From an uncultured virus (IMG/VR IMGVR_UViG_3300032294_002400) (lineage: Duplodnaviria > Heunggongvirae > Uroviricota > Caudoviricetes): 20,000 nucleotides of DNA. The first letter of the stretch is position 1. Every line of letters starts with the position of its first letter. Of this stretch, positions 2,061 to 20,000 are shown piece by piece. The stretch lies in IMG/VR virus record IMGVR_UViG_3300032294_002400. One strand, written 5' to 3'. Both the position numbers and the translations under genes were made by a program. The notes beneath the pieces were generated by a model, which did not search any database, was not told where the DNA came from, and saw only the letters and a program-made list of their open reading frames with translations.

Positions 2061-2499
2061 GCAAACAAACCCGCTGGTAGTACTAGAGGGTGCAAAGCAA
2101 CTAACTCAGCATGAGCTCGTAGAGCTACTTGCGGCAGTGGGTTTTGAGGGCAAGGCTCTTAAAACTGCATGGTCCGTTGTCATGCGCGAGTCTCGTGGGC
2201 GCCCTGTTGCCCACAACAAAAACGCCAGCACTGGCGATAACTCATACGGCCTATTCCAAATCAACATGATTGGTAGCTTAGGCGTTGACCGATTAGCTAA
2301 GTTCCAGGACAAGATTGGTATCACTAAGGTGACTGATTTATTTGACCCTGTAGCAAATGCTAAGGCTGCCTACTACATGACAGCGGGTGGCAAGGACTGG
2401 GCCTCATGGGGTCTAGGCCCTAATGCATACGACGGCGATTCGATTGAACCTGCGGTGACCAGGTGGTACACCGAATTCCCAACAAAGTCAAAGTCCTAG
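1915..2499 (+). CDS. Secreted or membrane-anchored lysozyme-like lytic transglycosylase (SLT_3-like), 194 aa
   Basis: N-terminal hydrophobic signal. Catalytic pattern AWSVVMRES…DNSYGLFQIN…LFDPVANAKAAY…W-x-x-W. SD AAGGAGG at 1898-1904 before TTG1915. Confidence 0.88.
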   Translation: MLTLRGIAMSTVAYITAITIGLFSVSMLSSNAASSPIITEVPAHIKQIEQTNPLVVLEGAKQLTQHELVELLAAVGFEGKALKTAWSVVMRESRGRPVAHNKNASTGDNSYGLFQINMIGSLGVDRLAKFQDKIGITKVTDLFDPVANAKAAYYMTAGGKDWASWGLGPNAYDGDSIEPAVTRWYTEFPTKSKS

Positions 2500-2507
2500 G
2501 ACAGGAA

Positions 2508-2522
2508 TACTATTACACCATG
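2508..2522 (+). promoter_or_regulatory. Probable leaderless promoter (-10 TACTAT, 6 nt, ATG)
   Basis: TACTAT at 2508-2513, then TACACC, then ATG2520. Confidence 0.45.
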
Positions 2523-3014
2523 GACGAACTAAATACTGAACATATCGAACCTGCGGCTGTCGCAGACGAGGTCCCTGCTGTAGAAGCAGAGGCTGTCATC
2601 GAGGCGCCTGCAGTTGTAGACGAACCTGCACCTACACCTGAGCCTGAGGTAATCCCTGAGGTAATCCCTGAGGTTGTACCTGAACCTGTAAAGGTTGAGG
2701 AGCCTAAGGCACACAAGCCTGAGGCTGTATACTCTGTCAGTGGCAATGGCATAGACGAAGTGCTTCTAGCAAATTGCATCTACAAAAATGTATATGCTCG
2801 CAAGTCTCTATCTGTTCATCATCTACAACGTCGTCTAGCTGAACTTGGTTTCAATGACGCTAGCTCTGATAAAGATGGTTGGCTAGGAGATGAGACTGTG
2901 TCTGCTATTAAAAAGTTTCAAGCAAGCAAAGGCTTAGAAGAAACTGGGTCTATTGATGCTACAACATTGACTAAGATCTTTGAAGGAGATCACAATGTCA
3001 AGGTAGTACTCTAA
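2520..3014 (+). CDS. Peptidoglycan-binding (PG_binding_1) protein with a Pro/Glu-rich N-terminal region, 164 aa
   Basis: VHHLQRRLAELGF…DGWLGDETVSAIKKFQASKGLEETGSIDATT is the classic PG_binding_1 pattern. Start moved from 2463 to ATG2520 to avoid overlap with the upstream gene. Confidence 0.85.
   Translation: MDELNTEHIEPAAVADEVPAVEAEAVIEAPAVVDEPAPTPEPEVIPEVIPEVVPEPVKVEEPKAHKPEAVYSVSGNGIDEVLLANCIYKNVYARKSLSVHHLQRRLAELGFNDASSDKDGWLGDETVSAIKKFQASKGLEETGSIDATTLTKIFEGDHNVKVVL
2644..2688 (+). repeat. Coding tandem repeat, 12-bp unit CCTGAGGTAATC (PEVI PEVI PEVV PE)
   Basis: cctgaggtaatc cctgaggtaatc cctgaggttgta cctgaa. Confidence 0.8.
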
Positions 3015-3342: not shown

Positions 3343-3831
3343 GCGCACACACCCGACCTCCCAAAGAGCGAGGCCGAATTCCTAGCCTCCCTTTCCAAGG
3401 AGCAACTATGGCGTCGTGTAAAAGACCTCAATGATGCAGGCTGGACCCTTCAGTCTATTGCGGACGCCTTTGACCCTCCGCGCCGTCGCTCAACAATCCG
3501 CAGCTGGGTTATCAAGGACACCCCTGAGTTCGAGTTTATCACCGCGACCCCTACGCCACCAAAGCCTAAGCAAAAGTTAAGACGTAAACGTCCACCGTCA
3601 CCTGGGATTCCTGTAGATCAGCAACTTCAAATCGCGAGACTATCACCGCTGGCACGACGCTATCGCGCTCGCACAAACCCAGGGTCTGCTTCTTTCACCG
3701 CGAATACCCAGCTAACCGTCATCGCAGGAGAACTTTATCTAAAAGGTGTAACAGTTTCAGAGCTTGCCCGCGCGTCAGGAGTTACCTATCGCGCGATGAA
3801 ACGTAGAGTAGATAAGGCCAATACACAATGA
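3340..3831 (+). CDS. Double helix-turn-helix DNA-binding protein, 163 aa
   Basis: LNDAGWTLQSIADAFDPPRRRSTIRSWV and LYLKGVTVSELARASGVTYRAMKRRV are joined by a Pro/Lys/Arg-rich linker. Confidence 0.8.
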   Translation: MAHTPDLPKSEAEFLASLSKEQLWRRVKDLNDAGWTLQSIADAFDPPRRRSTIRSWVIKDTPEFEFITATPTPPKPKQKLRRKRPPSPGIPVDQQLQIARLSPLARRYRARTNPGSASFTANTQLTVIAGELYLKGVTVSELARASGVTYRAMKRRVDKANTQ

Positions 3832-4808
3832 ATGATAAAAGCAAAGACGGTATTTCTGCTGCTCCATGGCCAGAAGGTCTCTATCCTATTTCAGTAAGAG
3901 GAAAAGACAAAGACGGCGAGTGGCTTCATGGAGCTACCATGACTATTACTCCTTGCCCAAAGAATGCAGTCTTCTACGAATCGCGTCTACCTGTGCCTTC
4001 AGGAGAAATTACACTTGACAAATACGCGGTTCGTTTCGACGCGCTCGTTCCGCCAGGCGATTACACGATAGCTTTTTCGCATGACCGTGAAAGTCCAGTA
4101 GTTAAGGTGACAGTTTCAGATCCTGTTGCTCAGACGGTTCAATCACCGGGCGCGGATAAACTTCCGGTGCACTACCGTGACTCCCGTTGGGATAAGTACA
4201 TCATGAAGGAGAACTCCTATGGCCCTCTCGACATGAACGAGACGGATACGGTAATTGACATCGGCGCTCACATTGGAATCTTTTCTCGTAAGGCTTTAGC
4301 CAAGGGCGCTCGAGTTTTGAAGGCGTATGAACCGGAGTCCGATAACTGCAGACTTCTTGATCTTAACTTATCAGAATACGACTCCTCACTATGGAACATC
4401 CAACGGGCTGCGGTTGTAGCTGACGACTTCCCGTTTGTAGAAGAGCGTTACGCCAAGCTATGGATTGACGCGGCAGGTGACGGAGATGCATCTCGCACCG
4501 CCCTTCACTCGCTATATCGCAAGCGCGGTGCGCGAGTGCCAGTTCTTGTTCCTGTAGTTACGTGGTCAAGTGTACTTGCGCTCAACCCTACGGTTCTCAA
4601 GGTAGACGTTGAAGGCGCGGAGCTTACGTATGACTGGTCACTTTTATCAAAGAATACATCTATCCGCAGCCTTGCCTTAGAGTTGGAAAATGTAAAAAGC
4701 AAGACAGGCACAAAAGGCAACGTCGTAGAGGATATTAAGAAAGCAGGCTTTGTCTTGACTAACGAGTCATCAGGCTGGTCAACAGTTCAGATTTGGACAC
4801 GTAAATAA
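3828..4808 (+). CDS. FkbM-family SAM-dependent methyltransferase with an extra N-terminal domain of about 110 aa, 326 aa
   Basis: VIDIGAHIGIFS, AYEPESDN and VLKVDVEGAE are FkbM signature motifs. ATGA overlap with the upstream gene. Confidence 0.88.
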   Translation: MNDKSKDGISAAPWPEGLYPISVRGKDKDGEWLHGATMTITPCPKNAVFYESRLPVPSGEITLDKYAVRFDALVPPGDYTIAFSHDRESPVVKVTVSDPVAQTVQSPGADKLPVHYRDSRWDKYIMKENSYGPLDMNETDTVIDIGAHIGIFSRKALAKGARVLKAYEPESDNCRLLDLNLSEYDSSLWNIQRAAVVADDFPFVEERYAKLWIDAAGDGDASRTALHSLYRKRGARVPVLVPVVTWSSVLALNPTVLKVDVEGAELTYDWSLLSKNTSIRSLALELENVKSKTGTKGNVVEDIKKAGFVLTNESSGWSTVQIWTRK

Positions 4809-5551: not shown

Positions 5552-7288
5552 GTGGCACTTTTCTCTAAGGACAACAACACTAACAACCGTCCTGTCTCTA
5601 AGTCTCGCCGTATCACCGCGAGCGCTCCTCGTAATCCAAAGAAGAACTCTGCAGTTACACCTACGCCTATTCCTGGCGCTTACACAGCAGCGCCGTACTC
5701 TGCACCTCGTCCTATTACAGCCGCGGCTGTTCAAATGAAGTTAGACGATAAAGGTGAAGTTGAAAAGTTTAAGCAACGCCGTAAGGGCGGATCTACCGAC
5801 TGGCAACATGAAGCCTGGGAGTACTACGACGCCATCGGCGAAGTTAAGTACGCGTTTAATCTTGTCGCGTCCGTCGTATCGCGTATTCGTTTATACGCTG
5901 CGGCTGTTGACAATCCTGCGGAGAATCCAGTAGCTGCTCGGGACAGTGATGTCATTGACCCAAATCTTGCGGCCGCCGCAGAACGCGCATTAGCACGCTT
6001 AGACTCCGCGTACGGCGGACAAGCTGGGCTTTTGCGGGACGCGGCATTGAACTTATCCGTTACAGGTGAATGCTATCTCGTTCAATTCCCAGAGCGTAAA
6101 GGCACAGGTGTTAAAGAGTCATGGGACATTCGCTCAACTGATGAATTGCAACTTGACGCAAAGAACCAATACACAATTGTTCCGCGCCGTGACGTTTTAG
6201 CGTCTGGCTCATCAGGCCCTTCACAGGGATACAGACTCCCTAACACGGCGTTCGTTGGACGCATCTGGAGAGCTCACCCACGCTACTCCGAAGAGGCTGA
6301 CTCTTCAATTAAGGGCATCCTTGATCTTTGCTCTGAACTTCTTCTCCTCAACAGAACGTTTCGCGCAACCGCGCGCTCACGTCTGAACGCTGGAGCGTTG
6401 TACTTACCAGACGGACTTTCTGTTGCCGCTAGCGCAGACCCAGACTATCCATATGATGACGAGAACGAGTTAAACCCTGGCATCACCGCCGAGGAAGCCG
6501 CGGACGAGTTTGAGGATCAGCTCATGGACGCGATGACGACTCCTATTCGTGACGAGGACTCAGCATCCGCGGTTGTGCCACTTATTATTCGTGGACCTGC
6601 GGAACTTGGCGACAAAATTAAGCAGTTTAAGTTTGAACGCTCGTTTGACCCTGCACTTGCACAACGCGCAGATCGCGTCCTCGAGCGTATCCTCCAGGGA
6701 CTTGACGTTCCTAAGGATGTCGTAACTGGTCTAGCAAACGTTAAGTACTCCAACGCGCTGCAAATTGACGAAGCTTTGTACAAGGCACACATCGAGCCGT
6801 TAATGCTTCTCATCGCAGACGCACTAACTGTCGTCTACCTACGACCAGCGCTCATCGCTGCAGGCTTTGACGAGGCCGAGGTTAAGCGCATCGTTGTTTG
6901 GTATGACCCATCACAGGTTGCTACACGTAATGACCGTGCAGCAGATGCTGATTCAGGATTTGACCGCATGGCAGTTTCCTACGAGACATGGCGACGCGCT
7001 CACGGCTTCTCAGCTGCCGACGCACCGGACGCAAAGGAAATCGCAATTCGTCTCTTAGCAGACAAGGGAACGATCTCTCCGGAGTTTACCCAGGCTATGC
7101 TCGACGCAATCGCGCCTGAGGTTATGAACGCGGTTCGCACCGCGCAGCAGGCAAGTTCCGTAGCGCCTGTACCTCCTGAGATTCAACAGGTACTAGAGCA
7201 GGCCGCAGGAACTCCTGCTCCAGAAGCAACACCTGCAGAAGAAGAATTACCACCAGCATTACAAGAGCCGCAAGAAGGAGCACAGTAA
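5552..7288 (+). CDS. Phage portal protein (actinophage cluster-B-like), 578 aa
   Basis: WQHEAWEYYDAIGEVKY…SRIRLYAA, LNLSVTGECYL, RIWRAHPR…ADS, RSRLNAGAL, SAVVPLII and LDVPKDVVTG are motifs typical of this portal family. SD GAGGAG and a GTG start. Confidence 0.88.
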   Translation: MALFSKDNNTNNRPVSKSRRITASAPRNPKKNSAVTPTPIPGAYTAAPYSAPRPITAAAVQMKLDDKGEVEKFKQRRKGGSTDWQHEAWEYYDAIGEVKYAFNLVASVVSRIRLYAAAVDNPAENPVAARDSDVIDPNLAAAAERALARLDSAYGGQAGLLRDAALNLSVTGECYLVQFPERKGTGVKESWDIRSTDELQLDAKNQYTIVPRRDVLASGSSGPSQGYRLPNTAFVGRIWRAHPRYSEEADSSIKGILDLCSELLLLNRTFRATARSRLNAGALYLPDGLSVAASADPDYPYDDENELNPGITAEEAADEFEDQLMDAMTTPIRDEDSASAVVPLIIRGPAELGDKIKQFKFERSFDPALAQRADRVLERILQGLDVPKDVVTGLANVKYSNALQIDEALYKAHIEPLMLLIADALTVVYLRPALIAAGFDEAEVKRIVVWYDPSQVATRNDRAADADSGFDRMAVSYETWRRAHGFSAADAPDAKEIAIRLLADKGTISPEFTQAMLDAIAPEVMNAVRTAQQASSVAPVPPEIQQVLEQAAGTPAPEATPAEEELPPALQEPQEGAQ

Positions 7289-9490
7289 ATGAACCACGCC
7301 AACGTGCGCGTAGAAAAGCCTGAGGTTGTAGAGTGCCTTGCCAATACACTAGGCAACGCAGTCCACATGTACTTCAAGGCACAGGGACATCACTGGAACG
7401 TTACAGGACGCGACTTCTCACAGTTCCATGACTTCTTTGAAGAGATCTACGAGGACATTTACTCTATGTTTGATCCTGTAGCAGAGAACATGCGTAAGCT
7501 TGGAGCGATGGCTCCTTATCGTCTTGAGGATCTTATGAACCTCAGTCAAATAGACGACATGGACTGCGGCGCAGACGCGATGATGATGGTTCAAGATCTT
7601 TACGCAGCAAACAACGTAATGATCATGTCTCTTGATAATTGCTTTCAGGTTGCAACAGCTGCAAACGAGCAAGGCATTGTAGACTACATCGCCGGACGAA
7701 TTGATATGCACAAGAAGTGGCGTTGGCAGCTAGCCGCGTTCCTATCACCAACTGAAGCAGATATGTTGGGAAAATCTAAAGCTGTTCAACCTATAGAAGC
7801 AGACATGCCTTATAAGGATATGCCTGTAGTTGAGCAGCTTATGCATGACCATAACGGTTGCCCTCTATGTGGCCCTGTTGGCTGCGTATGCCCCGGCTGT
7901 GACGGTGGATACTGTCTATGCGGTGAAGATTGCCCATGCCCACAGTGCCACATCTCCATGGACATGCGAGACGAAGAGTACGACCTAATGTTTTCATACC
8001 AAGAAGAGCGTGACGAGGCAATGACAGCCGCAGGCATCATCGTTGCAGAAGAGCAAGACCTTGCAGCAGCTCTTTTAGAGATTGCCCAGAAGCACGGAAA
8101 GTTTAACGAGGACCGCACAGGTATCTGGGCAGGATACACATCTGCTGCAGAGAACGAATACAAGGAAATTGGTGTTAAGTGCATCAACTGCGTTTTGTAC
8201 GAAGGTCCTGGAGTTTGCAAGATTATTGCACAGCCAATTGAAGACGACGGCAAGTGCCGTTTTGCAGTTATCCCTGACGGAGTTGTTAAGGTTGAAGACG
8301 ACCAGATCACCGCTTCAATTGATCTTTTAGATTCTTACGACTCTTCTGAGTTTGCAGACAAGAGCCCATGCTGGGACGGATACAAGCAAGTGGGAATGAA
8401 AAAGGGCAAGAACGGAAAAATGGTTCCTAACTGCGTTCCTGTAGATGCATCCGATGACTCGGAGTTTGCAGCTAACGACGGTGAAGACGAGTGCCCACCT
8501 GCAACACAGGATATTCAATTAAATCTAAAGAATCGTCAAAACGCAATTGACAACGTTGGCTATGGCCCGTTGAATCCTAAAGAGCCTAACGAAGAATTTT
8601 GGCAGGAAAAAGCTGACAAGTGGGATACGACTCCTGAAGAAGCAAAGACAAGCGTCTGCGGAAACTGTGTCTTCTTTGTTCGCACTCCAAAGATGCTTGA
8701 GTGCATTTCATCTGGATTAGAGCAAGGTGACTCAAGCCAGGTAGACGCTGACTCAGCAATTGACCAGGCAGAGCTTGGATACTGCGAGGCACTTGATTTC
8801 AAATGTGCTGCATCTCGTACATGCAACGCGTGGGCAGTCGGTGGACCTATCACTGCAGCAAGCTCACGCCGCGCTCCAAAGAAAGACCGCATCTACGGCT
8901 CAAAGAAAAACAAGCCAGGATCTGCTGACGGATCTAAGAAGATTGTTTTCTCTGCAAAGACAGAAACAGCTTTACGCAACAAGGTAGAAGAGCACAACAA
9001 GAACGCAAAGCCTGGACGTAAGGCAACGCTTCCAATGTTAAAGGCTGTCTACCGTAGAGGCTCAGGCGCGTTCTCATCAAGCCACCGTCCAGGTAAGACT
9101 CGTGACCAGTGGGCAATGGCTCGCGTTAACGCGTTCCTAAAGCTTTTGCGCTCAGGATCTCCTGCAAATCCAAACTACAAGCAGGACAACGATCTTTTGC
9201 CTAAGGCGCATCCGAAGTCAAGTCGTGGTGAGGCATCTGTCCTACAACACGAACTTCTACAGATCGCGCTTAAGTCCGCAGACGAGTATGGCTCGCCGGA
9301 GCACGCTATCTACTCTATGGCCGAGTATTCAGGTCTTGGGTATGAGGCAATCCCTGCATTACGCGGCGCATGGCTACGCGCTGTTCGTGATGGCGAGATT
9401 CCTTTTGAGCGAGCATACTCACTTGCGACAAAGTTATATGAATCAAAGGATGCAGATTTACTTCCAAAGAAGCGTAAGGGACAGGCCTAA
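7289..9490 (+). CDS. Multidomain head-associated protein, 733 aa: Dps/ferritin + Cys-rich segment + two HiPIP-like Cys domains + CWxGY module + DUF5824-like domains
   Basis: HWNVTGRDFSQFHDFFEEIY…DPVAE (Dps ferroxidase residues), 10 Cys in 30 aa, CINC…C…GKC, CWDGY…VPNCV, CGNC…GYC…C…C and VYRRGSGAFSSSHRPG…QWAMARVNAF. Confidence 0.85.
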   Translation: MNHANVRVEKPEVVECLANTLGNAVHMYFKAQGHHWNVTGRDFSQFHDFFEEIYEDIYSMFDPVAENMRKLGAMAPYRLEDLMNLSQIDDMDCGADAMMMVQDLYAANNVMIMSLDNCFQVATAANEQGIVDYIAGRIDMHKKWRWQLAAFLSPTEADMLGKSKAVQPIEADMPYKDMPVVEQLMHDHNGCPLCGPVGCVCPGCDGGYCLCGEDCPCPQCHISMDMRDEEYDLMFSYQEERDEAMTAAGIIVAEEQDLAAALLEIAQKHGKFNEDRTGIWAGYTSAAENEYKEIGVKCINCVLYEGPGVCKIIAQPIEDDGKCRFAVIPDGVVKVEDDQITASIDLLDSYDSSEFADKSPCWDGYKQVGMKKGKNGKMVPNCVPVDASDDSEFAANDGEDECPPATQDIQLNLKNRQNAIDNVGYGPLNPKEPNEEFWQEKADKWDTTPEEAKTSVCGNCVFFVRTPKMLECISSGLEQGDSSQVDADSAIDQAELGYCEALDFKCAASRTCNAWAVGGPITAASSRRAPKKDRIYGSKKNKPGSADGSKKIVFSAKTETALRNKVEEHNKNAKPGRKATLPMLKAVYRRGSGAFSSSHRPGKTRDQWAMARVNAFLKLLRSGSPANPNYKQDNDLLPKAHPKSSRGEASVLQHELLQIALKSADEYGSPEHAIYSMAEYSGLGYEAIPALRGAWLRAVRDGEIPFERAYSLATKLYESKDADLLPKKRKGQA

Positions 9491-12400
9491 TGGAATCTCC
9501 ACTCAATAAGAAGATCCAGCGTTCACTAGAGCGTGTAGCAGCTAAGAAGAAAAAGGACAGTAACTACATTCCTGTTCTTACTCTTCGCGAACGTGTTCTA
9601 TCTCTCGTGACCGAGGCAAATGCAAACGCGCTACAGGAACGTCACATCACTCCACGCTCCGCGCTTACAGTTATGGACCGCTCTATCGAGCGCCTGTCTG
9701 CACTTAAGGGAGACGCTAAGGACTTTGCTGTTTTGCGTGAGGTTGCATCTTACATCTCAACCGCACAAAAAACATTTGTAGCTAGCGCATCAACTCATAC
9801 AGACCTATTGCCTCAGGGTCACCCTTTGTCAAGTCTCAATGCGTCACTCACACCTGAAGAATACCGCTTCAAGTACGCACAGTGGTTGGCAGCTGACCCA
9901 GACGTTTCACATAACGCACGTCCACTTGTTGCTGCGGCGTTCTCTGCGCAGCCAGGCTCACTTGAGCGAGAGCACGCGTTCATGCGCCTTAGTGTTACTA
10001 GCGAAAAAGTTCCTGGATACTTTAAGCTTGATCCAGCTCCAATCGTTGCAGCTTTCTCGTCCGGTAACTCTTCTGCGGCTCGCAGAGCTCGCGTAGCTTT
10101 ACAGTGGCGTGACAAGAAAGGCCGCTGGGTTGAAATGGGACGCGGTGCAAACTTCCGCTACCGTACATCAAGCGGATCTGTCGCGGCAGCGTCTGGTGTC
10201 TACGTTGGCGTAAGCTCGCCAAAACCAGGAGCTGCAAATCAGAGTTCAGCTGGTCTTATCCAAGTCACAGGTGATAAGAATCTTCCAGATGGCATCTATG
10301 CAGTTCAACCAAATAACGCAGAAACCTACTCTGCGCGTATTCCAGCAGAGGCATTAAAGAAAGCTGGAGTAACTCCAGGCTTGCGACCAGACCAATCTGC
10401 ATTAGGAATTCCAACTCAAGAAGAAATTATGGCTTCTCGCCAGGACGCTCCTACAGGTTGGACAAAGAAAGACGACAATACATTTACATCTGATGATAAC
10501 TACACCGTAAAGGTAACGGACGGCGAATATACTCTCTTCCGTCAAAACGCAGACGGCTCACTTGGCGACAAGGTTGGCGAAGGTGCAAACTGGGCTGACG
10601 TTAACGATCTTGCAAATAACGACGAAGAAGCGTATGATGCAGTTAAAGGCCAGGACAACTCAGCAGGTAGAGAAGAAGTTAAGGCTCGCATCCAAGGCCG
10701 CACTAAGTACAACGAAGAATTTGATCGTCTTGAAGAGCTTGTTAAAAGCGGCGTAGACCAAAACGGAAATACAGTTCCTGCAGGCTGGGAAGCAGATATC
10801 AAGCGCGGCGCGATGCCTGAGGTTGAGCGCAGAGCTATTGGCCGTGACAGAGTCTTTGGTGAAGAAGGTCTTCCTTACCTAGAGTACAGCAAGACATACG
10901 CTGATGATAACGGAAACCCTGTTACAGCTAAAGCTATGTTTATGCGTGACGGTAAGTTTTACGCTAACGATAAAGAATATGATTCATGGGACGCAGCCGA
11001 GGCTGATATTCCAAACTGGATTAAGGCAGAAGAAGATAAGCGTGATCGCAAGCTAACTCCTGTTAAGCCAGAAGAAATCAAGCTGCCTGCATTTGAAGAT
11101 GGTCCATCTGATATTGTTAACCCTTTTGAGCCAGAGCCTGCACGAGACGACAGAGCAGGTTTCTTTGATAAGGACGGAAATAGACTTGCTGGACCTCCAA
11201 GTGGAGACAGCGAAGATCGTCCTCTTACTCCTGAGCAACTTAAAAGAATATCAGACGACATTCAGATACCTGCGCTAGATAGACTAGATAAGTCTGCTAA
11301 TCCTTTTGCTCCTTCAGAAATACCAGACTATCGAGCTGGGTATTTTGATAAGGACGGCAACAGACTTATAGCACCAGACAATGTAATAAAGCCTCCGCAA
11401 GATCTTAAGGTAGGAGATGAAGTATACATCCCTAACGTTGGCTGGAGAAAAGTAAAGAATGTTTCTAAAGATGAAAGACGTGCTGAAGGCCGCAGAAAAC
11501 CAGTTTCTCTTTATAAAGTTGAATACGAAGATGAAGAAGGCAAAACTGGCACATGGAAGTGGACTCCATTTTCAGAGGATGACCAAGGCAACAAGATTAA
11601 GGGGCTCGAAACTCGCACTCCTATAGAGGAGCGACTATCGTCTTTGACAGAAGAGCAAAACAAAAAGATTGATGCCGAGATTAGAGATCTTATTAAGAAC
11701 CCTCCTGCTCCAACAGAGATGGACAAGCGAGTTGAAAAGCTTCTCCAGGAACAAAGAGCAGAGTGGGACAAGGCTAATGAAGAAAACTACGCTAGAGTCT
11801 TTGACGGGCGCATTGGAGGCGAATATGACTTCCTTGGGCCAGAAAAGACTAGAAAAGCTAAGGAAGAGTTCCGCAAGAACCTTGAAAAGAATAAAAAGCC
11901 AGACGGTAGCACTCCAACTGGCTCGATAAGCCAGCAAATTCTTGCCTTGCGAGAGTCTGACTCTGATGCTAAAATCGAAGGAACTCTTGACAATGGAGTT
12001 AAGTACACTATTTACAAGAAAAATGTGCAAGCTACTTGGCGTGGAGAAACTACGACTGTTCCTGATGTTATAACTGTCGATCTTTCTGGTAGAACTTTTG
12101 ATGCTAGACAAGCTATTAAGCAAGAGATGTTTAGATGGAATGCGACTGATAAAGTATGGCGTCGCACTCACTTAGGCATAGGTCCTTACCAATACTCTGA
12201 CCCTATGGCAATTCAAGCTACTCTTGAGAAGCTTAACGGTGGAAACAAGCTCGCTGGAAAAGAAGCTATCTTGCCATCCGCTGCAGAGATGCGTCAGCAG
12301 ATGGAAAGGAATAGCTGGACTCCAGAAATTCTTGCTAGAAGAAATGGCGTATCTGTAGAAGAGATTAACGCAATTCTAGACGGCGACGCTACAGGCAAAC

Positions 12401-15400
12401 CGTCAGGCGCAACTGGTAAAGAAATCTACGAGCGTCGTATCGCAACAGGTGATTCACTTGACAAGGTCGCAAAAGATCTCGGAATTCCTCGTGAAGAAGT
12501 TCGTCGCCTAGAAGCAGAGTACGGACGCACCCTTGACGGCGGCACCCCTGGCGAGCCTACAACTCCTCCAACTGGCGAAGGAGACTCTAGAAAGTCTTAC
12601 ACAGTTGATTTTGCATTAGACTCAGATAGTTACGATGAAATTGGTCTTGACCCCGAGAAAGACTACACTGATGAAGAAGTTGCAAATGCCTGGATTAAGT
12701 CAAAAGGTCTTGACGGTAAGGTAGAGTTTGTAAAAGCAGACAACCCTTCAGGTCAATGGCCAGAGTTTACATTTAAGATTGATGAAAACAGCAAGGACGC
12801 TTTTGCTGAAGCTTATGGATACGATTCATGGAGTGACCTCAATGAAGACCAGCAGTTTGATGAAGGTGATGGCGACGGCCCAAATGAGCCTACAACTCCT
12901 CCAACTGGCGGAGGAGAAGGAGATAACACTCCTGGTGCAGGGTTCGTAGACTACGTTATTGATCTTGCAGAAGATAATCGTGATCTAGGCAAAGACCTAG
13001 AAGAAAAACTAGACGATGATGCTGAAGAAGCTGGCATCGACCTTATGGATCAAATCTACGAGGATGCGTCAGACCGTTTTGATCTGTCACAAGATATTGC
13101 AGACAATAAGCCAGATGACATGTCTGATGATGAATTTGTCGAAGACGCAGTTGCTAAGATGCGCGAGCAGCTTTCAGACATTGTAGACGCGGCAATTGAA
13201 GAGCGTCGTTCATTAGAAGACGACGAAGAGCTTGAAGTTGATTTTGATAGAGATGCGTTTATCGACGCTGCAGCAAATCGCTTTGAAGAGCTTCTTCGTA
13301 ATGAGCTAGATGGCATGGGTGATGAAGACGGCGAAGGCCCAGGCGAACCACCTGCTCCACCATCAGGCGGAACTCCACCAAAGACTCCAAGCCCAAGTAC
13401 ACCTTCTGCTCCTGGACTCTTCTCCGAGTTTGAAGCACCAGATGGCGCTTTCAAGTTGCGCACAGCTGACTACGACCCAGAAGGTCGCGTAGACGAGCGA
13501 AGCACAGACTTTACAGATGACCCAGAGCGTCTTGCAACTAAGTTTACAGTTCAAGATCTTATTGCCGCGTTCTCTGAGGCAATCATTGGAAACTCTTCAG
13601 ACGCTGCTGTTGCTGAGATTCTTAACGTAAACGTTGATGATGATAACGAGCTAGACGCTCCATCAGAGGTCGACCTTGACGCGGACATTCCTCAGGTATC
13701 TTTAGGAACTCCTTCTGGCGCTGGACGTCTAGAGTTTAATGCAGGTGAAGAGTTCGTACCCGCCGAGGCATTGTTTAATGCGCTATGGCATGCAGGAGTC
13801 GACCCTAACCGCGTTCTAGCGAACGTATATGACTCTGTAACTGGAGACAACAAGAACCTAGCAAAGCTTATCGACGCGCAGGGTGGAACACCTTCAGCAG
13901 AAGAAGCTCAACTAGTAGATGACATCACCGCCGAGATTCGTCAAATCAAGGACGCTACTCCAGACGATGAGCCTTCAATTGCAAATCAAAAGGATGAGCC
14001 TTCTGAGGAACTTACAGGTTCACTTCTTGAAAACCTTCCAATTGACTTTGAGAATCCTGACTACTACATCCCAGATTCAAGCTCATATGTCCCATCTCAA
14101 GAAGAACCAGATGAGAATGGCTACACTGATAACCCAGAGATTCTTGCAACTGATTATGAAGAAGCAGATCTCATCATGCAGATGCTTGAAGGAATTACAG
14201 ACGGCTCAGGTGCTGCGCTTCTAAACTTTGGTGACATTACGACCGAGGTCCCCGTCGAGGCTATACGTGACGCACTTCAACTGCAAGGTATCAATACAAA
14301 CGACATCCTCGTAGATCTCAAGCGTGAATCAAACGACATGTCTGAACCAGAGTCTGATGCACCAACTCTTCAGTTGCACTCACGGATAATTAAGGATCTT
14401 GTAGAGCAAACTGGAAACACGCTTGACGATGACACTGCTGATAACATTCGCGACGCTATCAACGAGCAAGGACTTATTGATTGGTCAGAGGCAGACGAAG
14501 CAGAGATCATTGAAGCAATCATTGATGTCGCAGGACCTGGCATATTTACTCGTGAAGACAGAAATCCACGCAGATTTGGTCCTACAGCAGGAGAGCAAGC
14601 AAGCTTCTCTCCTTTCGCCGATGCACTTGAAGGAGAAGAAGACAGTATATCTCCTGAGCAAGCAGAACAACTAGACTCTTCAGCAGAAGCACTTGTTAAC
14701 TTCTTTACCGGAGGGCTTAACGGAGCTCGCGTCATTGCATATAACCCTCAAGCTGGCTTGATCGCAGCTAGCACTAAAGAGACTGATCTTGAAGGCAGCC
14801 AAATTATTTTGGCGACTGCAGAAGGAAATGTACAAACCAGCGCGATTGTTGACGAGGAATGGTTTGCGCAAGACGGCGCTCGGCTTGGCTGGGAGCCTGT
14901 GTCACAAGAAGTTGTTAACGCTATCTATAAAGAAAATGGACGCCTCTTCCCAGATACTGCAATGAGCGCTCCAATTGTGCCAGACGTAGTAGAGACAGAG
15001 CCTCAGTCAAATGAAGTTGAAATCGACTCTCCTGAAAACGTAACTCCACAGTTTAACTACCCAGGTCCTCGTGAAGCTGGGTATACTCCTAATAACGTTG
15101 TTCGTGATTCTAATGGAGTTGCAGTTGGTGCTGGTGCACGCGTGAAAGCACTAGGCGATGGGCGCACAGGAACTATTTTGGCAGTGCAAAATATCGACAC
15201 CAGAACAGGGCGCGATGCAGACTACGTTCGCGTACGGTTTGACGACGGTAAAGTTGCAGTTCGCTCTGCACGTCAGATCTTTGGAATTGAGGGCGGCTCT
15301 CCAGTAGCTGAAGGAGAAGGACCAGGACAACTTCCTCCTGCGCGACGCAACCCAATTGTACAAGATCCTGTGCAAAGATTTAACGAGCCTCCTGCCGCTG

Positions 15401-17658
15401 GAACTCCTGTTATCGCAGGTGACGGAAGTATTCCTGGAGTTAAGTTAGTAGATACTCCTGACGATATTGCAGAGCTTGCTAACCCCGACGCTAAGCAATC
15501 AGACTTCGTTGCATGGGGGCTTCGCGCTCCTGAAATCGCACGAGCTGGACGTGACAGAGCTGCTATCGAGAACATCGTAGACCTTGTAGACAAGGAAAAA
15601 GAAGCTAAAATCTTAGCAAATGACACCTCTGCCTCTCCTGAAGAACGAGATAAGGCTAGAAATGATCAAGCAGCATTAGATGCTCAGATTCAAAGGCTTA
15701 TTAGAGACGCTTTTGGAATTCGTCCAGGTGTGCAATTTGGAAAAAATAACTACACCATTGGACAATTCGCTAGAGTTAGCTATGATAAATATGCATCTGG
15801 TGACATAGAACTTTCTATAGGTTTTAGAATCCTAAATGAAAACGGCGACGACGTTGGAGAAGGTAGTCGCACTCTTAACGGCAGCGTTGTTCGAAATGCT
15901 GATGGCACTTCTACTATTAAGTGGACTGCAGTAAACAACCTTCTTAAAATTCCAAACGCAAGAGATAAGAAATCTGGGTTTGTTAATGCCTACAACAGAT
16001 ACATGGAAGACTGGTATATCGCAAACGGCTTTGAGAAAGTAAAGGTATACGCCGCAGGTAATGGGCGTGAATGGCAAGGCGGACTTGTCTGGGCTCTTAA
16101 CGGATTTAACTGGCAAGACAATCAGGCAAGTGAAGTTCCTACTATTCTTCGCCGTATGGCAAACAAGCCAGGTATTACAGATGAAGAAAAGCAGATTATT
16201 AAAAGAATGCAAGATCGCGTTGCAAAAGATAATCCAACTGGAAACTACACAGCAGACACCGTGCCTACTCCATTAGAAATTGCTCTTATCGGATGGTACC
16301 CTGGTGCAACAAGCTGGGCAGGTGCTAAGTATATGATTGGCACAAGTTGGTATGGACAAAAACGTCTTGACCCACAAGCTATTGAACAGCGTCAAGCTAT
16401 TAACTACAACCAGTCACGAGAAGCTCGTAAGCGTATCGATGGTAAGTTAAATCAAGCAGGGATTAGCCGCGAGTTAGTTCTAAAGATGAACAGTAACGAG
16501 TTTGCAGATGCTAACCCGGAGCTTGTTCCGTATCTCGATCAAATTAGAGATGTATTGAGAAATAATCGCTCGCTAGCAGTTCTTTCTCCAGCGGCTAAGA
16601 CAGCTCTTAACCGATACACTGCAGGCCAGCTTCTTAAGGGCGAAGGTCGTGAAGCGTCGTTGCAGGATATCTTCAAGCTGCGCACAGCGCTTGACGCAGA
16701 GTTTAAAGCTGACAACCCATTGGCAATCTCAAAGGAATTTGGAGTTGGAAATCAGCTTCTTGACGCGTCTTATGACGACATTGGAAGAAACAACGTTCCG
16801 GGCTTTACAATCAAAAGACTCGGAATGTATGAGTCAGGCATCAATGACACGTACATGGTGACACATAATGATTCAGGCCAGGTGTTCTTTGTAAAGAAGG
16901 ATTCATACGCTGCGCAGTATCAAATCGACGGAGCTGGTGCTGAAGTTCAAGCAGATGCTATGCTGCGTGCCTCAGGAGTTGCAGCAGGGTATGAGGCGCG
17001 TGTTAGCAACGTTGACCCAGAAATTATCGTAATGCAACGTGCAGGAGCTGGAATCCCGCTTCTTGGTGAGCCTATGACTGCCACTAACGCTATAGGAAAC
17101 AAGCTATCAATCAATCTACCGGACGGCACGACTGTTAAGGTAGATGCTAAGAACTTTATGGATCTTCTCCATACACCTGAAGATGCAGTTCGTGTGATAC
17201 TTGTAGACCTTATCATCAGCAATATGGATCGCCATAACGGAAACCTATTGCTCGCGGTTGACGGTACGGATACAGGCAAGATTCGTATCCTGCCTATCGA
17301 TCATGCCCTATCATCTTTTAGCCCTGACACTGAAGGAATGCAGTTTACAGTAGAAGAGTTATTTGATAACCGTGGCGACAATTTATACGGAATGGCTATG
17401 CCTGTTCTAACTGAACGTCTAAAGCAAGAAGAAATTCTTGATCTGTTCAGAAATGAAGCTCGTAAGATGATGATGCAGCTAGACGATCCTGCAAATCTTC
17501 CTACAGGAAAAGAACTTGACCTTATCGTTAAGAACTTTGGAAGCCTTAACGCGTATCGCGCAAAAATTCAAGAACGCATTGACTCTCTTCTTTCCCCTGG
17601 AACTGAAGGACACCAAGCGTTCTTAAGTGCACTCGATCCTAACTACTGGTCAAGATAA
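9490..17658 (+). CDS. Giant polyvalent-type protein, 2722 aa, with HTH, SH3-like, GNAT-like and C-terminal HipA/PI3-4-kinase-like domains
   Basis: Uninterrupted ORF, TAATG-coupled to the upstream gene. Kinase motifs SGINDTY, FFVKK, DLIISNMDRHNGN and ILPIDH. GNAT-like KSGFVNAY…NGFEKVKVYA…GGLVWALNGFNW. Confidence 0.85.
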   Translation: MESPLNKKIQRSLERVAAKKKKDSNYIPVLTLRERVLSLVTEANANALQERHITPRSALTVMDRSIERLSALKGDAKDFAVLREVASYISTAQKTFVASASTHTDLLPQGHPLSSLNASLTPEEYRFKYAQWLAADPDVSHNARPLVAAAFSAQPGSLEREHAFMRLSVTSEKVPGYFKLDPAPIVAAFSSGNSSAARRARVALQWRDKKGRWVEMGRGANFRYRTSSGSVAAASGVYVGVSSPKPGAANQSSAGLIQVTGDKNLPDGIYAVQPNNAETYSARIPAEALKKAGVTPGLRPDQSALGIPTQEEIMASRQDAPTGWTKKDDNTFTSDDNYTVKVTDGEYTLFRQNADGSLGDKVGEGANWADVNDLANNDEEAYDAVKGQDNSAGREEVKARIQGRTKYNEEFDRLEELVKSGVDQNGNTVPAGWEADIKRGAMPEVERRAIGRDRVFGEEGLPYLEYSKTYADDNGNPVTAKAMFMRDGKFYANDKEYDSWDAAEADIPNWIKAEEDKRDRKLTPVKPEEIKLPAFEDGPSDIVNPFEPEPARDDRAGFFDKDGNRLAGPPSGDSEDRPLTPEQLKRISDDIQIPALDRLDKSANPFAPSEIPDYRAGYFDKDGNRLIAPDNVIKPPQDLKVGDEVYIPNVGWRKVKNVSKDERRAEGRRKPVSLYKVEYEDEEGKTGTWKWTPFSEDDQGNKIKGLETRTPIEERLSSLTEEQNKKIDAEIRDLIKNPPAPTEMDKRVEKLLQEQRAEWDKANEENYARVFDGRIGGEYDFLGPEKTRKAKEEFRKNLEKNKKPDGSTPTGSISQQILALRESDSDAKIEGTLDNGVKYTIYKKNVQATWRGETTTVPDVITVDLSGRTFDARQAIKQEMFRWNATDKVWRRTHLGIGPYQYSDPMAIQATLEKLNGGNKLAGKEAILPSAAEMRQQMERNSWTPEILARRNGVSVEEINAILDGDATGKPSGATGKEIYERRIATGDSLDKVAKDLGIPREEVRRLEAEYGRTLDGGTPGEPTTPPTGEGDSRKSYTVDFALDSDSYDEIGLDPEKDYTDEEVANAWIKSKGLDGKVEFVKADNPSGQWPEFTFKIDENSKDAFAEAYGYDSWSDLNEDQQFDEGDGDGPNEPTTPPTGGGEGDNTPGAGFVDYVIDLAEDNRDLGKDLEEKLDDDAEEAGIDLMDQIYEDASDRFDLSQDIADNKPDDMSDDEFVEDAVAKMREQLSDIVDAAIEERRSLEDDEELEVDFDRDAFIDAAANRFEELLRNELDGMGDEDGEGPGEPPAPPSGGTPPKTPSPSTPSAPGLFSEFEAPDGAFKLRTADYDPEGRVDERSTDFTDDPERLATKFTVQDLIAAFSEAIIGNSSDAAVAEILNVNVDDDNELDAPSEVDLDADIPQVSLGTPSGAGRLEFNAGEEFVPAEALFNALWHAGVDPNRVLANVYDSVTGDNKNLAKLIDAQGGTPSAEEAQLVDDITAEIRQIKDATPDDEPSIANQKDEPSEELTGSLLENLPIDFENPDYYIPDSSSYVPSQEEPDENGYTDNPEILATDYEEADLIMQMLEGITDGSGAALLNFGDITTEVPVEAIRDALQLQGINTNDILVDLKRESNDMSEPESDAPTLQLHSRIIKDLVEQTGNTLDDDTADNIRDAINEQGLIDWSEADEAEIIEAIIDVAGPGIFTREDRNPRRFGPTAGEQASFSPFADALEGEEDSISPEQAEQLDSSAEALVNFFTGGLNGARVIAYNPQAGLIAASTKETDLEGSQIILATAEGNVQTSAIVDEEWFAQDGARLGWEPVSQEVVNAIYKENGRLFPDTAMSAPIVPDVVETEPQSNEVEIDSPENVTPQFNYPGPREAGYTPNNVVRDSNGVAVGAGARVKALGDGRTGTILAVQNIDTRTGRDADYVRVRFDDGKVAVRSARQIFGIEGGSPVAEGEGPGQLPPARRNPIVQDPVQRFNEPPAAGTPVIAGDGSIPGVKLVDTPDDIAELANPDAKQSDFVAWGLRAPEIARAGRDRAAIENIVDLVDKEKEAKILANDTSASPEERDKARNDQAALDAQIQRLIRDAFGIRPGVQFGKNNYTIGQFARVSYDKYASGDIELSIGFRILNENGDDVGEGSRTLNGSVVRNADGTSTIKWTAVNNLLKIPNARDKKSGFVNAYNRYMEDWYIANGFEKVKVYAAGNGREWQGGLVWALNGFNWQDNQASEVPTILRRMANKPGITDEEKQIIKRMQDRVAKDNPTGNYTADTVPTPLEIALIGWYPGATSWAGAKYMIGTSWYGQKRLDPQAIEQRQAINYNQSREARKRIDGKLNQAGISRELVLKMNSNEFADANPELVPYLDQIRDVLRNNRSLAVLSPAAKTALNRYTAGQLLKGEGREASLQDIFKLRTALDAEFKADNPLAISKEFGVGNQLLDASYDDIGRNNVPGFTIKRLGMYESGINDTYMVTHNDSGQVFFVKKDSYAAQYQIDGAGAEVQADAMLRASGVAAGYEARVSNVDPEIIVMQRAGAGIPLLGEPMTATNAIGNKLSINLPDGTTVKVDAKNFMDLLHTPEDAVRVILVDLIISNMDRHNGNLLLAVDGTDTGKIRILPIDHALSSFSPDTEGMQFTVEELFDNRGDNLYGMAMPVLTERLKQEEILDLFRNEARKMMMQLDDPANLPTGKELDLIVKNFGSLNAYRAKIQERIDSLLSPGTEGHQAFLSALDPNYWSR
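11119..11367 (+). repeat. Intragenic duplicated peptide NPF…RAG(F/Y)FDKDGNRL, 180 bp apart
   Basis: Copies at 11119-11187 and 11299-11367. TTTGATAAGGACGG is shared at the nucleotide level. Confidence 0.85.
12553..12910 (+). repeat. Perfect 25-bp direct repeat GAGCCTACAACTCCTCCAACTGGCG (EPTTPPTG)
   Basis: Copies at 12553-12577 and 12886-12910, 333 bp apart and in frame. Confidence 0.9.
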
Positions 17659-17673
17659 TAGGAGAAATACGAA

Positions 17674-18273
17674 ATGATAAAAGTAATCCGCGCATTTGAC
17701 ATGACTGACAACGCTCATGCGTTTTCAATCGTGGCAACTGATAAAGGCTTTAAGTATATTTTCCCGAATACTGAAGGTGAGATCTTTGACCCAGGTAAGA
17801 GAGTTCAGCTTCTGTTAGACACTGTTAAACAGGATCGTAAGTCGTACACGGTTGACGACTACCTTGGTCTTGCTCAGTTTAATCTTAGCAACTACTACTT
17901 CTCTGAACCATTTGAGGAGCCTAGCGAGAAGATAGCCATGAAGAGCGAAAAGCTTAAAATGGAAAAAGACAAGGAAATAAGCAAAGCAGAAGAAGAGTCA
18001 AAGAAGTCAGTTGGTGTAGCTCTTAGATCTGTTGACATTGAGCAGGTTCTTTTAGATTTCCCAGAGCTTCTCGAGCAACTTAGCTCAGAAGATCCTGATG
18101 TAGAGATCACTGCGTCTGGCATGACAGAGCTAGTATTTGCGGCTCTAGGCTCCGTTGATCCTAATGGACCTAATGCATGGCTGTTAGATTATATGGATGG
18201 CCAGACTGCTGAAGGTGTAGTCGGCGATTTAGTGTTTGACCCTCAGCCAACCGATGAGACAGGGAAGAAGTAA
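17674..18273 (+). CDS. Hypothetical acidic protein, 199 aa
   Basis: SD AGGAG at 17660-17664. Sits between two head-associated genes. Confidence 0.85.
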   Translation: MIKVIRAFDMTDNAHAFSIVATDKGFKYIFPNTEGEIFDPGKRVQLLLDTVKQDRKSYTVDDYLGLAQFNLSNYYFSEPFEEPSEKIAMKSEKLKMEKDKEISKAEEESKKSVGVALRSVDIEQVLLDFPELLEQLSSEDPDVEITASGMTELVFAALGSVDPNGPNAWLLDYMDGQTAEGVVGDLVFDPQPTDETGKK

Positions 18274-18274
18274 T

Positions 18275-20000
18275 ATGGATATCGTAGGAAAGAATGGATC
18301 ACAGGTTCTTTTCTCTAACGAGAGCTCTGGCGTAATCATTGATGTCAATGAAAACACGGTAGTCGACTCTGGCCCTCTCTCAACTCTACTAGCCTCAGCC
18401 AAGTGGAGTGATAAAGACGTAGAAATCACCGAGACTATCGCAGACCTGGCGCAGGCAGCATTGACGACCTTAGACGTAGCGGTTATTGCCGCAGGCAGTC
18501 GCATGTATACCATTCCAAAAGGTGCTCAAGAGGAAGCTAAGCGCGGTCTAGAGTGGCGTAAGGAATATAACCGTGGTGGAACATCGGTAGGCGTCAACTC
18601 TGCGCGTACACTTGCTAAGGGCGGACAAATTGGAATTGAAAAGGTTCGCCACATCGCTAAGTACTTCCCTCGTCACGAAATTGACAAGAAGGCGCAAGGA
18701 TACGAGCCTGGAGAAAAAGGCTTTCCTTCACGTGGACGTATTGCTTGGGCTCTATGGGGTGGAGACGCTGCATGGCGTTGGGCAAGAGCTATCGTCGAGC
18801 GCGAGAACAAGAAGGCTCTACGCGCTGACGGGTATACAGACCAAGGCTACGAAGACGACCTCTATGACTACGCAACTGATACTACCTACAGTGCGGAAGT
18901 TGATGCGTTTAAGGACGCTTCTGCGACCGAAATCGGAGCAGTTGAGTTTATTGCCCGTATGCGAATGGACGGCTCAGGGATCGACCGCCTATACAAAATT
19001 GACGAGGCTTACAACGTTGCAGTATGGGACGCAGGCTTCTGGCACGTGCTTCCAGGTGTCGACGCGGACCTTGCAAGTTACGACCTAGCACTTGACGGAG
19101 AGTCATACGGAGTTGAAGCAACTCACGTAGAAATTGATGCTGAAACTGCCATGTTCCTTAGCGCTTGCTTCCAGGAAAACCCTGACCACTATGTTTCATT
19201 GTTCGACATCAACTACGACGAGGCAGAGATGATTCTTGCTGCCGCGTCTGAGCTTGATTACGAGATGATTGACAGAGTAATGGTTGCGGCTGTAAATCCA
19301 GAGGACGGAGTGTACACTCCTGAAGAGCGTGCTAAGAACGTTCAAAGACAAGTCCGTGATAAGACAGGTAAGTTCGCGAAGATGGGTTCACGCGTAGTTA
19401 TCGGCGGAGACACTCAAAAGGGGGCAGGAAACATTATTGCACTTGACCCTGCAAAACAAAGCGTCCGCGTGCAGCTAGACTCTGGTAGCATCGTTGATGT
19501 TCCAGCTAAGTCTACAGAGCCAGAGGCAACCGTTGCTCCTACATCTTCAACACAAGCACCAATCGAGTTTGAAGGACTAGATACATCAGGAATTCTTGGT
19601 GAGCCACGTGTTCCAATTGATCGTCCTAACGCAAAGATCCCTGGAACTCTTCCAGCACTTACACCTGAAGACCTTGGAAAAGTTATGGGCGACTGGCCTG
19701 CTTGGGTTAAGGCGCAACGCGACGCGTTTAATGCTTCAAAGAACGCAACACCAGACGCACCTAAGCCTATTAAGACAATTACAGGAAAAGATCAAATTCC
19801 TAATATTGAAAAGCCAGCATACTTAACTGAGCTTGAAAAGCTAACAGGCGCTACACTAGAGTTTGATCCATATAAGCACCCGTTGCTAGAACCTTTCCTA
19901 AACAAGAAGGTTCAAGGATCTGACGGTAAGTATTACTACCCAAACAAGTCGTACTACCAACCAATTATTCGTGGAAGTGCTGAAAAGGCTGGTAAGTCTA
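18275..20000 (+). CDS. Large head-associated multidomain protein (N-terminal part, truncated by the window end)
   Basis: Manual translation from ATG18275 shows no stop before 20000 (it is absent from the ORF track because it is unterminated). It contains EEAKRGLEWRKE…RGGTSVG…YFPRHE…PSRGRIAWALWGGD, a domain often fused to phage portal, MuF or prohead-protease proteins. It also contains RDKTGKFAKMG and an SH3-like segment. Confidence 0.85.
   Translation, partial: MDIVGKNGSQVLFSNESSGVIIDVNENTVVDSGPLSTLLASAKWSDKDVEITETIADLAQAALTTLDVAVIAAGSRMYTIPKGAQEEAKRGLEWRKEYNRGGTSVGVNSARTLAKGGQIGIEKVRHIAKYFPRHEIDKKAQGYEPGEKGFPSRGRIAWALWGGDAAWRWARAIVERENKKALRADGYTDQGYEDDLYDYATDTTYSAEVDAFKDASATEIGAVEFIARMRMDGSGIDRLYKIDEAYNVAVWDAGFWHVLPGVDADLASYDLALDGESYGVEATHVEIDAETAMFLSACFQENPDHYVSLFDINYDEAEMILAAASELDYEMIDRVMVAAVNPEDGVYTPEERAKNVQRQVRDKTGKFAKMGSRVVIGGDTQKGAGNIIALDPAKQSVRVQLDSGSIVDVPAKSTEPEATVAPTSSTQAPIEFEGLDTSGILGEPRVPIDRPNAKIPGTLPALTPEDLGKVMGDWPAWVKAQRDAFNASKNATPDAPKPIKTITGKDQIPNIEKPAYLTELEKLTGATLEFDPYKHPLLEPFLNKKVQGSDGKYYYPNKSYYQPIIRGSAEKAGKS

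Follow-up and report, generated by a model that had tools for sequence, protein, structure and literature searches.

A giant cysteine-free protein in the head operon of an uncultured phage combines an atypical kinase with a candidate head-protease site

The giant reading frame and its conserved chassis

We analysed a window of 20,000 nucleotides from the uncultured virus record IMGVR_UViG_3300032294_002400 (Caudoviricetes), which is 129,276 bp long, has a 123-bp terminal repeat and is rated complete. A single stop-free open reading frame (ORF), delimited in the same way by the first-pass annotation of this DNA, occupies positions 9490..17658 of the + strand and encodes a modular, cysteine-free protein of 2722 amino acids (aa) and 299 kDa. 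This protein, called here the giant, is a new, MuF-less variant of the phage polyvalent proteins and belongs to a head operon. A terminase-like gene is followed by small genes, by the portal gene (5552..7288, +; phrog_776, E-value 4e-108; 78% identity with the portal of phage DSL-LC01), by the gene of a 733-aa Dps/Cys-rich/DUF5824 protein (7289..9490, +; Pfam Ferritin, E 7e-14, and DUF5824, E 6e-7) and by the giant, whose ATG overlaps the stop codon of the upstream gene (TAATG). After the giant come a 199-aa gene, the start of a 1528-aa head-protease gene (18275..20000, +; its second part matches phrog_18402, head maturation protease, at E 3e-60), the major head protein, the major tail protein and the tape measure. 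In run X1, possibly the source of the record, one contig spans the giant ORF with zero differences, and most of the ORF is covered, in pieces, in runs X2, X6 and X7, which are aquatic or freshwater metagenomes. The ratio of non-synonymous to synonymous substitution rates (dN/dS) of the giant is 0.03-0.21, as determined for six blocks against three relatives.

Homologues were searched with residues 184-400 as the query, which gave 151 proteins at E<=0.001, of which 120 were listed; family counts refer to the 119 homologues left when the query is removed. Their length ranges from 1633 to 3317 aa. Residues 184-400 and 1300-1480 are present in 119/119 homologues, residues 1-183 in 114/119 and residues 1481-1620 in 115/119, and a second barrel, a GNAT-like domain and a kinase are each found in 102-103 of them. 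The family consists of a fixed chassis (a 188-aa front piece, an [LI]xA[AS] site, an SH3/Tudor barrel and an acidic duplicated domain) and of swappable cargo. The duplicated domain, at residues 1306-1620 (13405..14349, +), comprises two copies of an acidic alpha/beta domain that is conserved but has no family name, one in 119/119 and the other in 115/119 homologues, which align to each other with an hhalign probability of 99.7%. It gave no Foldseek match in the PDB at E<=0.001 and a single unnamed, low-probability match in BFVD; its fold was barely tested by VIA, since the barrel took up the matches of that search. The very acidic stretches of the first-pass annotation were found again, residues 1021-1700 holding 176 D/E and 45 K/R.

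The front piece, residues 1-188 (9490..10053, +), is basic (isoelectric point 9.5) and is a predicted propeptide with two conserved motif sites, LVAA 146 and IVAA 185. The latter (10042..10053, +) is a candidate head-protease site. Throughout the family, [LI]xA[AS] ends 16 or 18 residues upstream of the sequence QWRD in 119 of 120 proteins, the background being 10% per 20-aa window. The strict motif is enriched 8.5-fold upstream of the leader described below (240 occurrences versus 28+-5 in shuffles), and downstream of it lies under chance (84 versus 110+-11). Its density is 3.0 per 1000 residues in the seven head proteins and 1.05 elsewhere, and the proteins A3Wally gp85 and Cece gp68 each have a single strict site, which lies 8 residues after the protein start. 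A single maturation cut by the head protease is predicted from these patterns, which would leave a product of 278 kDa. According to passages of PMC10052503, head proteins of phage SPN3US lose long, motif-rich propeptides; the N-terminal pieces of SPN3US, phiKZ and T4 head proteins measure 111-254 aa against 188 in the giant, and a short protease motif recurs in both, whereas the motif (A-X-E in those proteins) and the protease differ and processing of the giant is deduced from sequence alone. The major head protein of the phage (genome 3105-5072, L046) has six strict motif sites, four of them within residues 195-332, which suggests a long processed front region.

The leader, residues 189-290 (10054..10359, +), carries the motif QWRDxxGRW, is present in 119/119 homologues and is a candidate capsid address. 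When the short homologue L007 was modelled, with a predicted local distance difference test score (pLDDT) of 72.8, its leader took the form of an SH3/Tudor/KOW-type barrel; the VIA Z scores of 5.2-6.9 lie under 7 and therefore indicate a common fold rather than a function. The leader is homologous to a module of the head-protease gene (hhalign 97.7%), and the front piece is paralogous to the C-terminal module of the 733-aa protein (hhalign 95%, E 2.5e-8). Neither the candidate processing site at the front end, nor the leader shared with the protease gene, nor the predicted inhibitor encoded next door had been recorded in the first-pass annotation.

The complete lack of cysteine in the giant has a chance of about 1e-10 at the genome mean of 0.86%. 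Across the family, 24 cysteines were counted in 21,331 residues before the site and one in 231,816 residues after it. Those 24 of the 25 cysteines occupy about a dozen positions of the alignment, within a part that makes up 8% of the length, and the single post-site cysteine ends a protein that is seemingly cut short.

The kinase, the GNAT-like domain and the 199-aa neighbour

Residues 2426-2722 (16765..17655, +) form an atypical kinase of the HipA/CotH/PI4K/CtkA fold; the kinase named in the first-pass annotation is thus borne out by fold and by catalytic residues. An AlphaFold2 model of residues 1845-2722, built on 18 sequences, reached a pLDDT of 81.5, and the helical C-lobe of the kinase was modelled with high confidence. 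Foldseek matched this C-terminal model to PI3K, VPS34 and CtkA. VIA matched the kinase to CotH (Z 12.4), PI4KII (12.1), HipA (11.1), CtkA (10.2) and also Fam20, with a root-mean-square deviation of 4.7-5.4 over 229-261 residues. Nine residues are invariant in 102/102 copies of the kinase (G2450, N2452, K2469, E2485, D2580, R2581, H2582, N2585 and D2604); the domain has the features of HipA/CotH/PI3K-like kinases, namely the fold, the catalytic Lys, the Glu, the D-x-H-x-x-N motif and the metal-binding Asp. Its dN/dS is 0.03-0.06. The inactive domains named as a counter-case by the first-pass annotation do not apply to the kinase, whose catalytic residues are intact. Sequence searches gave weaker signals: Pfam PI3_PI4_kinase scores 26 bits on the giant at a cut-off of 27.1, phmmer against PDB sequences returned nothing useful for the kinase, profile A1 reached CtkA at no better than E 0.4, and PADLOC returned weak kinase matches only (E 0.009-0.04). 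Protein kinases and lipid kinases both stand among the best fold matches, no more than 2.5 Z units apart, and the substrate class is therefore not readable from the fold. By analogy with the HipA and T7 kinases, as treated in passages of PMC8008677, the target may be a protein.

The GNAT-like domain, residues 2076-2295 (15715..16374, +), is present in 103/119 homologues, with G2163-F and GxxWAxxGF conserved. Its profile matched PDB sequences weakly, seven of ten matches falling on motif A (E 0.03-1.6) and six being titled acetyltransferase. Acetyltransf_1 occurs in 20% of the members of its Atlas cluster, again a weak signal, and matches 11 of the 66 relatives scanned, sometimes away from the matching copy. 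Pfam gave no match on the giant's own domain, and the fold search of this region was taken up by the kinase. GNAT-like domain and kinase are the most divergent blocks (46% and 44% mean identity, against 55-60% elsewhere). The second SH3-like barrel, residues 1868-1935 (15091..15294, +), is also found in 103/119 homologues; the segment annotated earlier at 15106-15280 is all-beta in the model (pLDDT about 60) and aligns with the barrel of the protease gene (hhalign 73%).

Directly after the giant, positions 17674..18273 (+) encode a 199-aa protein that belongs to no Pfam or PHROG family and is a candidate immunity protein. When it was modelled together with residues 2296-2722, the complex scored 0.81, the best of three controls scoring 0.01; this mark is reached by 116/157 solved complexes and by 2/215 mismatched pairs, a calibration only roughly valid for our own alignments. 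At least 72% of the contacts agree between runs, and the pLDDT of the partner is at least 68. In the model, the first 80 residues of the 199-aa protein touch G2450, N2452, K2469, D2580, H2582, N2585 and D2604, i.e. seven of the nine catalytic-motif residues, and the invariant F38, R43 and L71 of the partner lie in the interface. Of 29 kinase-type giant ends, 28 are followed by this gene and one lies at a contig edge; several of these loci are on the same contig. It is absent from 12/12 loci of another C-terminal type; in the six of these with a downstream gene in view, an unrelated gene replaces it. The model supports a role in which the 199-aa protein would plug the kinase active site, like an immunity protein.

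Cassettes, linkers and related giants

The first-pass annotation had treated a series of small domains as the make-up of the giant. Most of them lie in a variable slot, residues 526-1278 (11065..13323, +), which holds the first SH3-like segment, a GxTF module, two helix-turn-helix (HTH)-like segments and acidic cassettes of 110 and 153 aa. Every segment between residues 526 and 1280 is present in only 1-26 of the 119 homologues, and most of the small domains are therefore optional cassettes rather than core; their order differs in homologue L009. The SH3-like call at 11395-11565 is backed by three sequences only, with an hhalign probability of 0.3% and no PDB match. The G-x-TF..K..FRW..K-x-W module is present as described, at residues 866-892, but has no family name, the Atlas lead to DUF5710 reaching 0.81 only. 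Both HTH-like segments are weak (Pfam E 0.012 and 8e-4 when searched as segments, under the cut-off). For the idea that the acidic cassettes are DNA mimics, no stand-alone versions were found, and the three matches to shorter proteins were all on contigs under 2.7 kb.

The Pro/Gly linkers reported earlier are present and are repeated at the DNA level. Three copies of a 51-nucleotide repeat (family D1) bound the 110-aa and 153-aa cassettes: copy 1, GGTPGEPTTPPTG, at 12534..12584, copy 2, 82% identical to it, at 12867..12917, and copy 3 (61%), which opens the conserved acidic core, at 13326..13376, all on the + strand. Contigs of independent runs, whose 88% likeness indicates related strains, break off, jump or turn back on themselves at the linkers, with loose ends or joints at 12863-12914 in X6 and X7, loose ends at 13357-13379 in X2 and a joint to 13348 in X7. 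Tandem copies of the 110-aa and 153-aa cassettes occur in relatives. Linker count correlates with slot length (rho 0.59), the strict linker pattern being unmatched in 90/120 proteins. Recombination between repeated linkers may lead to the gain, loss and duplication of cassettes. Strong-split conflicts between trees numbered 21/36 for leader versus kinase and 4/42 for GNAT-like domain versus kinase; the latter two domains appear to travel together. In L024, compared with the window, the synonymous rate (dS) is 0.57 for the kinase and 2.1 for the front piece, pointing to a recent exchange inside the giant gene.

In 16/119 homologues the N-terminal half is kept and joined to another C-terminal half, which is related to that of DSL-LC01, the position in the operon being unchanged. 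Its kinase-like motif set aligns with the kinase of the giant at 10% probability only, and its last 574 aa have no match in PDB sequences or PADLOC. An ART identity, first assigned by eye to this half, was dropped, as 12 of 14 such proteins scanned whole gave no informative Pfam match. Two proteins of this type (P0240 and P0246) have an extra HExxH zincin-like insert with a weak Pfam match under the cut-off. In the close relatives P0267 and P0271 (contigs up to 88.5 and 130.7 kb; kinase 86-87% identical), the called start is near residue 1313-1316, just past the last linker, which reflects either a natural split or a frameshift.

A profile search matched 851 representatives, of which 150 were listed and 66, chosen for size and for a match to the GNAT-like domain, were scanned. 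The same leader occurs in 39 of the 69 giants among the matches listed. Front piece, leader and acidic domain are also found with a DEDD exonuclease (six proteins) and, in P0053, with MPTase-PolyVal (E 1e-27) and ArdC-N (E 1e-23), and the leader alone carries 2H in two proteins. Other proteins join the GNAT-like domain to portal, MuF, ART or zeta toxin, the portal or MuF fusions accounting for 5/66 scanned proteins. Jera gp5 (L003, 4120-6123), annotated "capsid maturation protease", has Pfam Phage_min_cap2 and a related GNAT-like C-terminal end. Atuin gp71 (L043, 19956-29297), annotated "DNA helicase", is a 3113-aa cysteine-free giant directly 3' of the portal gene, in which the leader alone carries an ART domain and UvrD.

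Atuin gp71, Pumpernickel gp82, A3Wally gp85, Cece gp68 and DSL-LC01 WJZ48510 all share with the giant its position in the head operon and its leader. The four cultured ones are cysteine-free, and gp82 ends in a similar kinase motif; they differ from the giant in having no long front piece and only a small part of its cargo, and are annotated only as hypothetical protein or DNA helicase. Outside subscription journals we found no paper on this protein family, of which the supplements of PMC5512222 and PMC10611076 may list members.

Interpretation and minor features of the locus

With the kinase and, less firmly, the GNAT-like domain as unrelated enzyme folds in one chain encoded among virion genes, the giant fits the polyvalent proteins on testable criteria and fails the MuF toxin-immunity class on the MuF domain. 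Its description as a polyvalent-like head protein in the first-pass annotation is upheld by its position, by these two folds, by the cysteine ban and by orthologues of its chassis that carry the polyvalent hallmarks MPTase-PolyVal, ArdC-N and ART, relatives through which it is linked to the polyvalent domain network. As described in passages of PMC5512222, polyvalent proteins are likewise of giant size, join unrelated enzymes in one chain, occur among late genes and have mosaic orthologues. No Pfam-modelled polyvalent hallmark domain was found in the whole giant or in 22 segments of it, and its sequence has no HExxH. The giant's kinase keeps its C-lobe, in HipA/PI3K-like fashion, whereas the polyvalent kinase clade of those passages is truncated and has lost the C-terminal subdomain, and a front-end head-protease site, a barrel leader and a cognate inhibitor are not described in them.

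The "MuF position" of the first-pass annotation holds as a place in the head operon only: MuF (PF04233, PF06152) is absent from the giant and from the complete genome, the controls matching in 5 and 1 of 14 genomes, respectively. MuF toxins such as Apk2/IapK, as presented in passages of PMC12226406, resemble the giant in lying between head genes and in having a constant N-terminal carrier and an exchangeable C-terminal enzyme. IapK occludes the active site of its toxin there, and the gene next to the giant is predicted to act likewise. The giant differs from such toxins in the missing MuF domain, a much larger size, several enzymes and an internal cassette slot. The N4/DEV virion RNA polymerase and ejection proteins are also very large, cysteine-free and proposed to be ejected (passages of PMC11445570, which extend the lack of cysteine to N4-type ejection proteins, and of PMC3915230); in contrast to them, the giant has no polymerase or membrane segments and belongs to a phage with siphovirus-type tail genes and a likely Gram-positive host.

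We consider it probable, with some reserve, that the giant is an effector that is packaged in the head, trimmed of its propeptide and ejected, and that it is kept in check by its predicted inhibitor in the producing cell. The protein would be made late, alongside the head proteins, and would be loaded into the head through its front piece and barrel, both shared with other head proteins. The head protease would remove the first 188 residues in one cut. The 199-aa protein would sit over the active site of the kinase and so hold the enzyme inactive in the cell that makes the phage, and the two would separate at ejection, when the whole cysteine-free 278-kDa chain would enter the next host. There, kinase and acetyltransferase would modify host proteins early in infection, the presumed targets being host defence or transcription and translation.

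Several observations weigh against this reading. Myoviruses are argued to be better equipped for protein injection in passages of PMC9503650, and the phage studied here has tail genes of the non-contractile type. The tape measure and several other long structural proteins of the genome also lack cysteine, so that ejection is not specifically implied by its absence. The 119 homologues are mutually related, forming 9 clusters at 60% and 27 at 80% identity, and their counts therefore overstate independence. The GNAT-like domain, named so in the first-pass annotation too, is likely an acetyltransferase, by signals that are weak in each single test. As for the predicted complex, HipBST, a kinase toxin-antitoxin, is among the fold matches of the kinase, and since solved complexes of such systems exist, the pass of the model may rest partly on likeness to them. 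S72 of the 199-aa protein lies by D2604 in the model, so that the protein may be a substrate; this residue is Gly in 3/15 homologues. Finally, Pumpernickel gp82, with its similar kinase motif, is followed by a different gene.

The alternative that survives best, unlikely as we hold it, is that the enzymes act late in the producing cell, in superinfection exclusion or modification of head proteins, with the 199-aa protein as regulator or substrate and packaging incidental. The position in a late operon agrees with this, as does the availability of ATP and acetyl-CoA during assembly. A further precedent against ejection is the HipA-like kinase of the Gratiaviridae, also encoded between portal and major capsid genes and read as late-acting in passages of PMC8008677; it lies beside an AAA ATPase and a glycosyltransferase, whereas here the kinase closes a giant chain that also bears a GNAT-like domain, and it is paired with a predicted inhibitor. 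In L013 (14522-15505) and L017 (11753-12736), the 199-aa family is fused through a motif site (VTAAV/LTAAV junction) to a head-type, Cys-containing module also present in the 733-aa protein, and the 199-aa protein may therefore itself be a head protein. Late action, however, leaves unexplained why the cysteine ban starts at the site and why the same leader carries exonuclease, ArdC and UvrD cargo, and the predicted plug, encoded in the same operon, speaks for a kinase that is switched off at late stages of infection.

It seems improbable that the giant is an internal structural or DNA-delivery protein, its chassis serving as a core or as a conduit through a thick envelope with the enzymes as passengers, a view compatible with an ejected effector. 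Only the leader and the first acidic domain occur in 119/119 homologues, and a cysteine ban is common to ejectosome proteins; but the giant has no hydrophobic membrane segment (best 19-residue hydropathy 1.15), the size of its homologues varies with free insertions, and enzyme domains occur in every full-length type that could be annotated. We give very little credence to an outer structural protein (a head or tail fibre, a decoration protein or a tape measure): SH3-like barrels can bind surfaces and the Pro/Gly linkers would give a beads-on-a-string shape, but the tape measure is a separate 1199-aa protein with many PHROG tape-measure matches, G-x-x runs and other fibre-like repeats are absent, which disposes of the fibre or tape measure named as a counter-case in the first-pass annotation, and the enzymes are intact and need cytoplasmic cofactors. 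Just as improbable is a polyprotein cut by the head protease into many free domains, to which the two further motif matches, LIAA 1357 and LIAA 1757, would point. Neither of these sites is conserved: the third position of the 1357 site usually holds R, Q or S, and the segment around 1757 is present in 10/119 homologues. The downstream motif count is under chance, and the giant has no HExxH peptidase motif.

Beyond an ejected effector as such, we put forward, as a rather doubtful possibility, a MuF-independent cargo system of large actinophages, in which a giant addressed to the procapsid by a propeptide, later removed by the protease, and by the SH3/Tudor barrel is ejected whole through a long non-contractile tail into a Gram-positive cell with its kinase toxin, the inhibitor is left behind and the cassettes are shuffled by linkers. 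In such a system the virion would split a toxin-immunity pair in time, and the giant would be a natural protein-delivery chassis. That polyvalent proteins are injected has been a proposal since 2017, resting mostly on context. The present family makes it sharply testable, with predictions for the mature N-terminus, for a single 278-kDa product and for an inhibitor interface, with named catalytic residues and with four cultured relatives that share the leader. If injection is true, siphophages deliver very large enzyme chains into Gram-positive hosts, and widespread aquatic phages (the 151 homologues at E<=0.001) arm their virions with a kinase-acetyltransferase pair; the targets would point to defence systems of the hosts.

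The host of this freshwater phage is likely an actinobacterium. This class is assigned because the portal has 78% identity with its counterpart in DSL-LC01, a lake phage with the predicted host Actinomycetia and predicted to be lysogenic (passages of PMC10611076), and because the giant matches Microbacterium phages; all nine phage records matched by the giant are DSL-LC01 or Microbacterium phages. The one match in GTDB genomes is a 2.5-kb contig in a Fonsibacter metagenome-assembled genome, likely mis-binned, and no prophage copy was found among these genomes. The tail genes are of the long non-contractile (siphovirus) type, with no sheath match among 14 structural ORFs scanned. Promoter and terminator scans gave chance-level results.

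An FkbM-type methyltransferase gene is inserted before the portal gene at window 3828-4808; the close relatives listed have no ORF of its size at this position. The terminase-portal interval also encodes, at window 1915-3014, an SLT/lysozyme-like protein, whose N-terminus is hydrophobic, and a peptidoglycan-binding protein. The 733-aa Dps/ferritin-domain protein, directly 3' of the portal gene, has 26 cysteines, and relatives carry its modules in further head genes as well. The head-protease gene (window 18236-20000 and genome 1-2984) runs over the terminal repeat of the contig; its equivalent in DSL-LC01 and Atuin is two or three separate genes.

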